Below, piece by piece: positions 19,153 through 34,478 of a DNA stretch of 64,000 bases (position 1 is its first letter; each line of letters begins with the position of its first letter). This DNA comes from Octopus vulgaris (lineage: Eukaryota). The stretch lies in assembly GCA_951406725.2 (NCBI GenBank), contig OX597815.1:59768001-59832000 (forward strand), read 5' to 3'. The notes below the pieces were generated by a model. It ran no database searches. It worked only from the letters and a program-made list of their open reading frames with translations, and was not told the origin of the DNA. Position numbers and translations under genes: made by a program.

Positions 19153-19700
19153 CTTGTTTTATTTATATTTCCTGAGCGCCATACTAATACAATTGTTCGT
19201 TTGTTTTCCACCTGCCTTCGTCTTTTGTCTATTTTCATAAAGCTTCCCGTTATATATATGTATATATATATATGTATATATATATATATATATATATATA
19301 TATATATATATATATATATATATATATATATATATATATATATATATATATATATATATATATATATATATATATATATATATATATATATATATATATA
19401 TATATATATATATATATATATATATATATATATATATATATGTATGTATATATATATATATATATATATATATATATATATATATATATATATATATATA
19501 TATATATATATATATATATATATATATATATATATATATATATAATATATATATAGAGAGTGGTCACTATATTGATCACTCTAGCACCAGTAAATCCAAA
19601 AGGTTTCAACCACGAAAAATACATGTTTCCCATGAAAGCCGGTACGACTGTTAGCTCACACGGACAGGGCAAATAAAAAATAACAAAAATACAGATTATT

Positions 19701-19776
19701 TTGGGACAATTGTTTCGCTATTAATGAATTAAATGTAATATTACTTACAATAATCCATTTGTAGCTCTTCAGCCAA
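19701..19776 (-). ncRNA. Type I hammerhead ribozyme, canonical core
   Basis: TTGG-CTGAAGA-GCTA...TAGC-GAAA-CAATT-GTC-CCAA. Confidence 0.88.
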
Positions 19777-20699
19777 GACTATCTGGATGAAATCCACTCA
19801 ATCACACGCCAGATTTTACCATAACGATAAATACGCGTGCGGTTCAATTGATTACATCGGACGTTATAATTCAAATGCCCCAACCAACAGCGCGCCAAAC
19901 TCTCACGGAAAAGAAATACAGCATTTAGAAATAAATGCAGCATAATTATAATTAATTAATAAGGGTGAGAGAATTAGATACTAATTTAATAGTATATTTA
20001 TTCCACACCAAGTGGCCTAGTGCTACGAGAAACCTGGATTATTATAATATTTTATAACATATTATAATATTTTCACAAAATAAATATAAGAGAGTGGTCA
20101 CTATATTGATCACTCTAGCACCAGTAAATCAAAAGGTTTCAACCACGAAAAATACATGTTTCCCATGAAAGCCGGTACGACTGTTAGCTCACACGGACAG
20201 GGCAAATAAAAAATAACAAAAATACAGATTATTTTGGAAATAATCTGTATTTTTGTTATTTTTTATTTGCCCTGTCCGTGTGAGCTAACAGTCGTACCGG
20301 CTTTCATGGGAAACATGTATTTTTCGTGGTTGAAACCTTTTGGATTTATTGGTGCTAGAGTGATCAATATAGTGACCACTCTCTTATATTTATTTTGTGA
20401 AAATATTATAATATGTTATAAAATATTATAATAATCCAGGTTTCTTTTCGTAGCACTAGGCCACTTGGTGTGGAATAAATATACTATTAAATTAGTATCT
20501 AATTCTCTCACCCTTATTAATTAATTATAATTATGCTGCATTTATTTCTAAATGCTGTATTTCTTTTCCGTGAGAGTTTGGCGCGCTGTTGGTTGGGGCA
20601 TTTGAATTATAACGTCCGATGTAATCAATTGAACCGCACGCGTATTTATCGTTATGGTAAAATCTGGCGTGTGATTGAGTGGATTTCATCCAGATAGTC

Positions 20700-20775
20700 T
20701 TGGCTGAAGAGCTACAAATGGATTATTGTAAGTAATATTACATTTAATTCATTAATAGCGAAACAATTGTCCCAA
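20700..20775 (+). ncRNA. Type I hammerhead ribozyme, canonical core
   Basis: TTGG-CTGAAGA(20704)-GCTA...TAGC-GAAA-CAATT-GTC(20769-20771)-CCAA. Confidence 0.88.
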
Positions 20776-21062
20776 AATAATCTGTATTTTTGTTATTTTT
20801 TATTTGCCCTGTCCGTGTGAGCTAACAGTCGTACCGGCTTTCATGGGAAACATGTATTTTTCGTGGTTGAAACCTTTTGGATTTACTGGTGCTAGAGTGA
20901 TCAATATAGTGACCACTCTCTTATATTTATTTTGTGAAAATATTATAATATGTTATAAAATATTATAATAATCCAGGTTTCTCGTAGCACTAGGCCACTT
21001 GGTGTGGAATAAATATACTATTAAATTAGTATCTAATTCTCTCACCCTTATTAATTAATTAT

Positions 21063-22335
21063 ATATATATGTATATATATATATATGTATATATGTATGT
21101 ATATATATATATGTATATATATATATATATATATATGCATATATATATATATATATATATATATATATATATATATATATATATATATATATATATATAT
21201 ATATATATAGCATATATATATATATGTATATATATATATGTATATACACACACATATATATATATGCATATATATATATACACTTATATACACACACATA
21301 TATATATATATATATGTGTGTGTGTGTGTGTGACACACACATGTGTGTGTGTGTGTGTGTGTATGTATATATGTATATATGTATGTAGTGTGTGTGTATA
21401 TGTATATATATATGTATATATATATATATAGTGTATGTCATATATATATATATATATGCATATATATATATATGCATATATATATATATATATGCATATG
21501 TATATATATATATATATATATATATATGCATATATATATATATGTATATATATGTGTGTGTGTGTGTGTGTGTATATATGTATATATGTATGTATATATA
21601 TGTATATATATATATGTATATATATATGTATATATATATGTATATATATATATATATATATATATATATATATATATATATATATGTATATATATATATA
21701 TATAATATATATATATATGTATATATATATATATATATATATATATATGTATATATATATATATATATGTATATATATATGTATATATATATATGTATAT
21801 ATATATATATATATATATATGTGTATACGTATATATATATATATATATATATATATATGTATATATATATATATATATATATATATATATATATATATAT
21901 ATATATATATATATATATATATATATATATATATATATATATATATATATATATATATATGTATATATATATATATGTATATATATATATATATATATAT
22001 ATGTATATATATATATGTATATATATATATATATATATATATATATATATATATATATATATATATATATATATATATATATATATATATATATATATAT
22101 ATGTATATATATATGTATATATATATATATATATATATATATATATATATATATATATATATATATATATATATATATATATATATATATATATATATAT
22201 ATATATATATATATATATATATATATATATATATATATATATATATATATATATATATATATATATATATATATATACATATATACACGCATATATGTAC
22301 ATGTCTTCATATATATGTATATATACATGCATATA
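21063..22335. repeat. ~1.3-kb interrupted (TA)n microsatellite
   Basis: Direct reading; the longest of many TA tracts in the window. Confidence 0.97.
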
Positions 22336-23120
22336 TGGGTACAGGACGTAAAAAAACGTGAAAAAATGAGAAACGAAAAAAAATCAAAGGCATGGAAAAT
22401 GAACTTTTTTCGAACAACGAAAAAACAAATAGAGAAACGAGACATGCAACATAAAGAACATTCCCTTCATCAGTTTTCCCCTGTTTTATCTACTCCGCGT
22501 TACGAAGGTAGGGACAAGACGCGACTTCGTTAAAACAATCCTTCCCGCAAAGCAAATTAAAAAACAATTTAGGATTTTTTGCGGAGGAATAAAGTGGTAA
22601 CAAAAATAGGACAGTAAGAACAAGGCAGTAAAAACAAACGGTGAGGGTTGTTAAGCCATAACGAATTGAAGTGGTGAACGCTGAAAAAACGAGCTTTGAG
22701 AAAAGACAGGCAAAAGCACGTCTTGTCTTTAGGAAAGAAGTGGAAGAAACAAAGATAGATAGCCGCTGGTCACGTGTGAGCAACGAAAGATTCAAGGAGG
22801 AAGAGTGTGAGAGAGAGAGAGAGAGAGAGAGGGAGCGGTGAAGGGGAGAGGAGAAGAATTAGAGAAAGGGTGGGAGAGATAAACAGAAAGGAAGAAGAAC
22901 AAGAGAGGGATATAGAATAGTGATCGGTTGAAGAGTGCGCATCAGAATTATTAGGATAAAACTTACTTGGAAATGGATGTGTGGTGTTCACCATATAATA
23001 ATATAAATAATATATATATGCATATATACACACATACATGTACATGCCTACATAAATATATATATATATATATATATATATATATATATATATGTATATT
23101 ACATGCATATAGGGGTACAG

Positions 23121-32290: not shown

Positions 32291-33068
32291 TATCTATCTA
32301 TCTATCTATCTATCTATCTATCTATCTATCTATCTATCTATCTATCTATCTATCTATCTATCTATCTATCTATCTATATATATATATATGTATATATATG
32401 TATATATATATGTATATATATGTATATATATGTATATATATATATGTATATATATGTATATATATATATATGTATATGTATATATATATGTATACATATA
32501 TATGTATATGTATATATATATATGTATATATATATGTATATATATACATGTATATATATGTATATATATATGTATATATATATATGTATATATATATGCA
32601 AATATATATGTGTGTATATATATATATGTATATATATATGTGTGTATATATATATGTATATATATGTGTGTATATATATATGTATATATATATATATATA
32701 TATATATATATATGTATATATATATATGTATATATATATATATGTATATATATATATATATATATATATATATATATGTATATATAATTAATTAATAAGG
32801 GTGAGAGAATTAGATACTAATTTAATAGTATATCTATTCTACACCAAGTGGCCTAGTGCTCCGAGAAACCTGGATTATTATATTATTTTACAATATATTA
32901 TAATATTTTTACAAAATAAATATAAGAGAGTGGTCACTATATGGCTCACTCTAGCACCAGTTAATCCAAAAGGTTTCAACCACAAAAATACATGCTTCCC
33001 ATGAAAGTTAGTACGATTGTTAGCTCACACGGACAGGGCAAATAAAAAATAACAAAATACAGATTATT

Positions 33069-33147
33069 TTGGGACAATTGTTTCGCTATTAATGAATTAA
33101 ATGTAATTTTACTTACAATTAAAATCCACTTGTAGCTCTTCAGCCAA
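33069..33147 (-). ncRNA. Type I hammerhead ribozyme
   Basis: TTTTGG-CTGAAGA-GCTA...TAGC-GAAA-CAATT-GTC-CCAAAA. Confidence 0.88.
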
Positions 33148-33603
33148 AACTATCTGGATGAAATCCACTCAATCACACGCCAGATTTTACCATAACGATA
33201 AATACGCGTGTGGTTCAATTGATTACATCCGACGTTATAATTCAAATGCCCCAACTAACAGCGCGCCAAACTTTCACGGAAAACAAATACAGCATTTAGA
33301 AATAAATGCAGCATAATTATAATTAATTAATAAGGGTGAGAGAATTAGATACTAATTTAATAGTATATCTATTCTACACCAAGTGGCCTAGTGCTCCGAG
33401 AAACCTGGATTATTATATTATTTTACAATATATTATAATATTTTTACAAAATAAATATAAGAGAGTGGTCACTATATGGCTCACTCTAGCACCAGTTAAT
33501 CCAAAAGGTTTCAACCACAAAAATACATGCTTCCCATGAAAGTTAGTACGATTGTTAGCTCACACGGACAGGGCAAATAAAAAATAACAAAATACAGATT
33601 ATT

Positions 33604-33682
33604 TTGGGACAATTGTTTCGCTATTAATGAATTAAATGTAATTTTACTTACAATTAAAATCCACTTGTAGCTCTTCAGCCAA
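33604..33682 (-). ncRNA. Type I hammerhead ribozyme
   Basis: Same motif as 33069, 535 bp away. Confidence 0.88.
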
Positions 33683-34096
33683 AACTATCTGGATGAAATC
33701 CACTCAATCACACGCCAGATTTTACCATAACGATAAATACGCGTGTGGTTCAATTGATTACATCCGACGTTATAATTCAAATGCCCCAACTAACAGCGCG
33801 CCAAACTTTCACGGAAAACAAATACAGCATTTAGAAATAAATGCAGCATAATTATAATTAATTAATAAGGGTGAGAGAATTAGATACTAATTTAATAGTA
33901 TATCTATTCTACACCAAGTGGCCTAGTGCTCCGAGAAACCTGGATTATTATATTATTTTACAATATATTATAATATTTTTACAAAATAAATATAAGAGAG
34001 TGGTCACTATATGGCTCACTCTCAATTGAACCACACGCGTATTTATCGTTATGGTAAAATCTGGCGTGTGATTGAGTGGATTTCATCCAGATAGTT

Positions 34097-34175
34097 TTGG
34101 CTGAAGAGCTACAAGTGGATTTTAATTGTAAGTAAAATTACATTTAATTCATTAATAGCGAAACAATTGTCCCAA
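34097..34175 (+). ncRNA. Type I hammerhead ribozyme
   Basis: TTGG-CTGAAGA(34101)...GAAA-CAATT-GTC(34169-34171)-CCAA. Confidence 0.88.
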
Positions 34176-34478
34176 AATAATCTGTATTTTGTTATTTTTT
34201 ATTTGCCCTGTCCGTGTGAGCTAACAATCGTACTAACTTTCATGGGAAGCATGTATTTTTGTGGTTGAAACCTTTTGGACTAACTGGTGCTAGAGTGAGC
34301 CATATAGTGACCACTCTCTTATATTTATATATGTATATATATATATATATATATATATATATATATATATATATATATATATATATATATAATGTATGTA
34401 TGCATACGTGTATGTTAATTCATACGCATTTTTCTTCTCCGTTGTTTTTGTTTCTGTCCGTTTTTTCCCTTCTCAATC

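Follow-up and report, generated by a model that had tools for sequence, protein, structure and literature searches.

We analysed a 64,000-nucleotide stretch of the Octopus vulgaris genome (GenBank assembly GCA_951406725.2, contig OX597815.1, positions 59,768,001 to 59,832,000 of the forward strand), hereafter the window, whose own numbering is used throughout. The window contains two palindromic insertions, locus A (19556-21060) and locus B (32786-34328), both composed of one 535-bp unit for which self-comparison revealed no other copy. In each locus, two arms meet centrally with their 5' ends and run into (TA)n with their 3' ends. Judged from its sequence, the unit is a non-long-terminal-repeat (non-LTR) retrozyme, which has no open reading frame (ORF) and carries a type I hammerhead ribozyme. 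With a probability of roughly 0.6, we propose that this retrozyme was copied in trans by a Penelope-like element (PLE), and that cleavage of a (TA)n tract provided a primer on each strand, from which cDNA synthesis began at two fixed internal sites. A first-pass annotation of the same DNA had suggested priming from both sides of a broken (TA)n tract, which we regard as the most likely mechanism; it mentioned neither the hammerhead nor the "tail at one end" pattern known from PLEs.

The 535-bp unit and its two insertions

Unit positions are counted from the first base after the predicted ribozyme cut (nt 1) and are also given modulo 535. A strict descriptor of the type I hammerhead matched seven times in the 64 kb, five of them within A and B, and never in 25 simulated windows. 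A relaxed descriptor, loosened only once the sequence had been seen, gave 11 matches against a mean of 0.16 in simulated windows. The motif comprises the core CTGAAGA, a long helix II, GAAA, helix III and GTC preceding the cut. Helix III, as read from the motif, is weak, with two pairs and a palindromic 4-nt loop, as in retrozymes. Folding recovered helices I and II at both loci (z = -3.8 for 20699-20776 in A and z = -4.0 for 34096-34176 in B). Each arm of A bears one motif, and two consecutive motifs lie 535 bp apart in the left arm of B, matching the tandem repeats of retrozymes. The longest stop-free frame of the unit is 70 aa and its G+C content is 32-33%, in agreement with the non-coding, low-GC (<45-50%) character of retrozymes; no LTR-like frame was seen in it by eye. 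We infer that the hammerhead of the unit cleaves itself, and two indirect pointers to the behaviour of the unit RNA are the 5' end of A at the cut site and the fold of the circularised unit (z = -6.6 versus 40 shuffles).

An ORF for a reverse transcriptase (RT) with a GIY-YIG endonuclease, as carried by autonomous PLEs, is absent from A and B. No pseudo-LTR (pLTR) homologous to the unit was found within the 64 kb, and the PLE ORF remnant at 51412-52853 has no sequence in common with it. ARAGORN predicted no tRNA, and a 25-nt motif of the unit had no match in a collection of bacterial and archaeal genomes, as expected for an animal repeat. On the minus strand at 880-965, a sequence with a comparable hairpin weakly resembles unit nt 222-280 and ends near E2 (one of the two end sites described below) in (TG)n; its score of 158, versus 150 for the next of 807 windows and with no nhmmer match, is not significant.

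The head-to-head arrangement of the arms noted in the first-pass annotation was borne out by self-comparison, and the coordinates are given in Table 1. The arms are nearly identical within each locus (678/683 and 296/297, or 99.3-99.7%), and the tandem copies inside the left arm of B are 100% identical, whereas the units of the two loci match at 508/537 positions. Of 540 columns compared between A and B, 28 carry fixed differences, while private events number three in A and a single one in B, indicating that each locus was derived from one template variant. In addition, A and B differ in centre, unit number and E1 base (the other end site), and they share no flank beyond TA. These data support A and B as independent, RNA-derived insertions. 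The first-pass annotation had named a DNA-level duplication of one locus from the other as an outcome that would overturn its proposal. Such a copy or rearrangement, later homogenised by gene conversion, could be suspected from the 12-kb distance between the loci and from an E2 end identical to the base; it is largely refuted by the fixed differences, the contrast between identities within and between loci, and the distinct centres, and we consider it highly improbable. An assembly or library fold-back artefact would also produce near-perfect palindromes in long microsatellites, and the window does include an assembly gap (100 N at 8482-8581). However, the arm ends are unequal and reproducible, private mutations are present, and the same design recurs in the window with arms only 93% identical (142/152, locus D), making an artefact extremely unlikely.

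Table 1. Coordinates of loci A and B, their parts and two comparator loci in the window. Ribozyme cuts are predicted positions.
Feature	Position	Strand	Remarks
(TA)n tract left of A	19251..19555		outer side is the 3' end of another pLTR-like remnant (~19080-19250)
A left arm	19556..20237	-	unit nt 1-683 (148 nt beyond one full unit); 5' end coincides exactly with hammerhead cut; 3' end E1
Type I hammerhead	19700..19777	-	junction intact; cut after 19705
Palindrome A centre	20235..20238		3-nt spacer between 105-bp perfect arms
A right arm	20238..21063	+	unit nt 4-822 (825 including TA overlap); 3' end E2
Type I hammerhead	20699..20776	+	cut after 20771
139-nt "tail" between E1 and E2	20921..21060	+	at one end only; stable hairpin (unit ~229-274) just upstream of E2
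Interrupted (TA)n tract right of A	21060..22336
(TCTA)n/(TA)n tract left of B	32283..32785		common to the end of palindrome 32014-32277
B left arm	32786..34022	-	unit nt 121-1357 (2.3 units); 5'-truncated; 3' end E2
Type I hammerhead	33068..33148	-	cut after 33073
Type I hammerhead	33603..33683	-	cut after 33608
B right arm	34022..34328	+	unit nt 386 to 683-692; 3' end E1
Type I hammerhead	34096..34176	+	cut after 34171
(TA)n tract right of B	34320..34391
Locus D, non-homologous comparator	50225..53102	PLE on minus	5'-truncated PLE with inverted copy
Locus E, non-homologous comparator	10082..11183		head-to-head, hammerheads on both arms

Paired 3' ends in TA tracts

The four arm ends lie where the first-pass annotation had located them. 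The left arm of A terminates in GACCACTCTC(T) at 19556/19555 and enters (TA)n 19251-19555, and its right arm terminates in CCCTTATTAATTAATT at 21060, entering (TA)n 21060-22336. The same CCCTTATTAATTAATT motif ends the left arm of B at 32786 (32785 being the first flank base), entering the tract at 32283-32786. The right arm of B terminates in GACCACTCTCT at 34319, followed by 9 further nt that match the element (to 34328) and by (TA)n to 34391. E2 corresponds to unit 287-290 in both loci and is identical within the 4-nt TATA overlap, whereas E1 falls at unit 147-148 in A and 154-157 in B, within one UA-rich patch and on bases 6-9 nt apart. The claim that both loci use the same two TA-like endpoints is exact for E2, then, and for E1 must be loosened to the patch. 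Each locus has one E1 and one E2 end, approximately 139 nt apart, and all four ends lie in (TA)n. The two loci are indeed flipped relative to each other, yet this is a 1-in-2 outcome for a two-armed locus.

According to PMC8557442, a PLE insertion is a partial tandem accompanied by an inverted, 5'-truncated copy, and its tail of 30-40 bp is often confined to one of the ends. Loci A and B both present the partial tandem with an inverted 5'-truncated copy in a (TA)n target, and in both the E1-E2 segment is terminal on one arm only; at ~139 nt, this tail is longer than the 30-40 bp of PLEs. The chance of the same pair of ends being reused is ~7e-4 with ends uniform over the 535 nt and ~1/36 if ends are confined to the nine alternating-TA runs of at least 4 nt. 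Pure TA runs of at least 12 nt make up 6.1% of the window, giving a chance of ~0.4% for two of two insertions inside one. All these probabilities, for both end reuse and TA location, were computed after the fact and with n = 2.

When an 8-nt TA primer was scored at the 535 positions, E1 was among the four best (7/8) and E2 among the best 24 (6/8). The exact overlap between end and tract was 4 nt at both E2 ends, 3 nt at E1 of B and 1 nt at E1 of A, where the junction pairs well only with a 1-nt bulge (8/9). An equally good patch at 235-238, which lies within the stable hairpin, and the longest TA run (175-180) were unused, indicating that annealing alone does not choose the sites. The earlier suggestion that broken (TA)n ends anneal to UA-rich spots in the RNA is consistent with the high ranks of E1 and E2, but falls short as the sole determinant: the start is probably placed by structure or protein, with TA pairing as an aid.

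The (TA)n tracts look older than the inserts, judging by their interruptions and continuations. The flanks contain 0-7 non-AT bases per 100 nt (one in 66 nt for the right flank of B), with seven, four and one adjoining three of the ends and none at the left end of A, and the left tract of B continues into the end of an older element. Alternatively, a telomerase-like RT could have added (TA)n by reiterating the UAUA patch, with no targeting. Both ends lie at TATA words and PLE RTs are related to telomerase (PMC4209133), but where the arms are nearly identical, the adjoining tracts are interrupted, unlike one another and continuous with the ends of unrelated older elements. Moreover, (TA)n is a preferred target described for Naiad and Neptune PLEs, a CX2-5CXXC linker being proposed to confer the Naiad bias on Neptune as well (PMC8557442). 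We therefore judge such addition very unlikely. At B, the right tract opens with 14 nt, including its only G, that also form the final 14 nt of the left flank; this may weakly suggest a target-site duplication of 9-14 bp, marked by one G and not separable from the microsatellite. At A, up to 10 bp of pure TA could represent such a duplication, which is likewise inseparable from the microsatellite.

The same pattern occurs at other loci. Ten candidate palindromes were examined and nine head-to-head loci were kept, the candidate at 37007-37127 being dropped as TA noise. Four of the nine are clearly staggered with both ends in TA. Locus D ends in TA on both sides, with the short end at 50225 and the long end, which extends 86 nt further, at 53102. 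It retains an RT remnant and a GIY-YIG domain preceded by CX4CXXC, and its 17 longer relatives bear RT and/or GIY-YIG family labels or related Pfam accessions, the named ones being mostly from oyster. Pfam named only one of six PLE-like fragments, and our descriptor detected no canonical hammerhead in D. In locus E, the short end is in TA at ~11172-11183 and the long end lies 81 nt further, in TA at 10081. At 4995-5505 (locus C), the ends are ~15 nt apart, with no tract on the left, and two more loci (H and J) were unscorable on one side. Local folds of the tail regions gave z values of -2.8 (A), -1.2 (B), -1.5 (D) and -1.0 (E), and so show no general tail structure.

Priming mechanism and palindrome centres

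Under the mechanism that we favour, the unit would be a non-autonomous hammerhead retrozyme, and a Penelope-like RT equipped with a GIY-YIG endonuclease, probably of the Neptune/Nematis type, would copy it in trans. The enzyme would cut both strands of a pre-existing (TA)n tract, and each 3' end would prime cDNA inside a multimeric retrozyme RNA, with E1 serving as one start and E2, at a distance of 139 nt, as the other. Two priming events are indeed needed to account for 3' ends that lie in TA and differ from each other. In vitro, the anole PLE protein cleaves and extends both strands and initiates at two internal RNA sites bounding the tail, and a dimer has been predicted (PMC11167929). The start sites would be set by the ribonucleoprotein and by RNA structure, with 3-7 nt of TA pairing assisting. 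Once both cDNAs had proceeded toward the 5' end of the RNA, joining of their ends would create head-to-head arms, only one of which would carry the E1-E2 "tail". For A, the template would be a linear, partly cleaved multimer whose 5' end is the ribozyme cut; since one and the same stretch is represented in both arms, either two RNAs (dual priming) or snap-back would be involved. For B, both cDNAs would have stopped early.

At the 20237/20238 join of A, unit nt 1 meets nt 4 with no microhomology, which is the position of the ribozyme cut. Both arms of A run through one intact ribozyme junction and terminate at the following one. For A, the simplest template would be a linear multimer that had been cut at its 5' end and still held one uncut site, and the exact folding of A at the cut hints that cut RNA served as the template. 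The chance of one exact match among the four 5' ends is 0.7%; counting the two A ends as independent would give ~1e-4, although they are not independent under snap-back. In B, the centre (34022) has a 1-nt microhomology and is not at a ribozyme cut, and it is compatible with dual priming, snap-back or twin priming. Rolling-circle copying of a closed circle would explain the tandem arms and is possible for B, but by itself it would not explain why A stops at the cut.

The first-pass annotation had likened the event to twin priming, which in the L1 sense involves one RNA and two RTs, the downstream cDNA stopping at the upstream primer. In B, the E2-primed arm does stop at nt 121, 27-36 nt past E1 in unit coordinates, with the microhomology at the centre; a stop no more than 36 nt from E1 is expected by chance in ~13% of cases (72/535). 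Twin priming is expected to leave an internal deletion (PMC2837659), whereas in unit coordinates the arms overlap by 680 nt in A and by 27-36 nt in B, and a poly(A) first primer is missing. Because both A arms copy nt 4-683, twin priming on one RNA does not fit; two RNAs, or snap-back plus a second cDNA, do. This part of the earlier proposal is not supported in the L1 sense of the term, and L1-type twin priming appears quite unlikely. Dual priming from two RNAs was proposed in PMC2837659, where it was indistinguishable from twin priming.

Snap-back, in which a cDNA runs off the ribozyme-cut 5' end, copies itself and then anneals to or switches onto the cDNA or RNA of the other end, fits the centre of A as well as priming on two RNAs. 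This centre is a perfect hairpin with a 3-nt loop and 105-bp arms, for which a few untemplated A's would start the folding, and the left arm of B stops at the base of a hairpin (unit 121-147). Self-priming has also been proposed for the head-to-head repeats of PLEs (PMC3846280). Nevertheless, pure snap-back cannot yield the longer arm, in which unit nt 149-287 occur twice and only once in the short arm. The second arm of B begins at nt 386 and not where a fold-back would continue, and the second end would still require a second priming event. Overall, snap-back as the main route seems doubtful.

A more specific version of two-strand priming is possible, though we hold it tentatively: a dimeric PLE enzyme could load two linear ribozyme-cut RNAs and allot E1 or E2 to each strand, the germline cut becoming the centre of the palindrome. 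If true, the genomic sequence would show directly that hammerheads of the PLE type cleave the insertion template in vivo. It would also mean that linear multimers can take the place of circles in retrozyme insertion, and that a single two-strand priming step generates both the tail and the inversion of PLEs.

Several observations weigh against priming of a PLE-copied retrozyme from both strands of an older tract. The reading is built on n = 2 loci with no empty allele, and A is the only one of the nine head-to-head loci centred on the cut. Two others, G (29555-29735) and I (32014-32277), have the same end on both sides. The left flank of A is pure AT for 100 nt and offers no evidence of age. 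The start site of the anole PLE is not homologous to the cut DNA, ribozyme cleavage is not required and no reads end at its cut site (PMC11167929). No autonomous partner of the unit was found within the window, nor any significant match elsewhere in it (best BLAST E value 0.01; none with nhmmer). Among the 150 of 227 Rfam matches listed, there was no hammerhead family, only microsatellite-driven miRNA-type matches, all below the gathering score; the ribozyme call hence rests on our own descriptor and folds. Finally, none of 162 pairs was compensatory between A and B, a comparison of only two sequences.

Known systems and neighbouring elements

PLEs are already known to show the headline pattern, in which two fixed ends lie in TA, one of them on each side. 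The additions, namely a retrozyme bearing a PLE footprint, long tails, short target pairing and one cut-centred palindrome, rest on two loci. In the literature that we searched (subscription papers being largely outside the search, and older PLE surveys or the Terminon paper possibly covering these points), we found no retrozyme with PLE-type inverted ends, no inversion centred on a ribozyme cut and no 139-nt tail. The unit resembles metazoan non-LTR retrozymes (PMC7229834; bioRxiv 10.64898/2026.07.22.740005) in its non-coding tandem organisation with one type I hammerhead per unit, its G+C content of 32-33%, its strong self-pairing and PLEs as the proposed mobilising partner. Its 535 bp compare with 150-450 (PMC7229834) and 51-972 (bioRxiv 10.64898/2026.07.22.740005) for those elements. 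The retrozymes of both papers occur as tandem arrays of hammerhead repeats and are thought to insert from circles with the help of PLEs; here the arms are head-to-head with fixed staggered ends, and a linear cut template is suggested by locus A. PMC7229834 nowhere uses the word "inverted". The use of PLE machinery by retrozymes has so far been argued from co-occurrence and phylogeny (bioRxiv 10.64898/2026.07.22.740005).

Compared with insertions of endonuclease-positive PLEs, with Neptune/Naiad-type targeting, loci A and B share the partial tandem, the inverted 5'-truncated copy, an extension confined to one end and (TA)n flanks in which any target duplication is hidden (PMC8557442, PMC3846280, PMC2377424). 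The same tandem-plus-inverted form is described in Drosophila (PMC2377424), while head-to-head PLE repeats were attributed to self-priming in PMC3846280. The octopus loci differ in having no ORF, in their longer tail and in one centre located at the ribozyme cut. In schistosomes, opposite-strand hammerhead pairs 100-700 bp apart have been reported and a circular template proposed (PMC4209133). The Anolis Poseidon element PAc resembles A and B in vitro, with two internal starts bounding a tail, an AT-rich target and extension of both strands, but PAc starts in an AC-rich stem-loop (PMC11167929), whereas both starts here are UA-rich with short target pairing. As in L1 twin or dual priming, both target strands would prime cDNA to give inverted arms; unlike in L1, there is no poly(A), both primers are internal and occupy fixed sites, and the arms overlap with no deletion between them, which is closer to "dual priming" (PMC2837659). 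The origin of the tandem and inverted structures of PLEs and the role of their hammerheads are named as open questions in PMC8557442. Such a short, young, repetitive unit records start, stop and cut sites in one coordinate system, so a genome-wide table of its family would test these questions computationally.

The repeat content of the window resembles that of a cephalopod and includes other hammerhead families. A second family comprises 10082-11183 (locus E) and 9290-9503, a related solo copy ending at the short site in TA. A third includes two head-to-head loci, 4995-5505 and 29555-29735; the copies at 4995-5505 carry the core change CCGAAGA in both arms, which are 110/110 identical. A fourth, at 30826-31487, is also head-to-head; in its right arm, a segment sharing 98.8% identity with 35727-36061 interrupts helix III. 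Two older palindromes, 32014-32277 and 48813-49390, have ends in (TCTA)n or TA, and the latter includes a degenerate hammerhead-like stretch recognised by eye only. In addition, two arms of 27-30 bp face each other across a (TA)n core at 29860-29955, forming a tail-to-tail palindrome.

Around locus A, a minus-strand element at 22337-22990 with the look of a decayed pLTR has its end facing the (TA)n tract of the right arm. The segments 13660-14330, 18600-19250 and 34420-34600 contain a PLE endonuclease-like frame, with no Pfam match, and pLTR-like remnants; 19116-19155 and 34479-34518 match at 92.5%. Between the first two of these segments lies a long ORF (14717-18088, 1123 aa) resembling that of a long interspersed element (LINE), which we take to be RTE-like. 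Mobile-element remnants were also recognised by eye at 42871-44074, 38932-41735, 2875-4276 and 60472-61212. These are presumably a second PLE-like RT/endonuclease, an APE-RT LINE, a gag/protease/RT LTR-type fragment and a mariner-like transposase fragment; Pfam gave no match for the PLE pieces among them. Lastly, a dispersed family resembling short interspersed elements occupies many sites (e.g., 12191-12595, 23122-23538 and 37807-38223), its two halves being split by a TA/TG microsatellite and its copies often flanked by TA.

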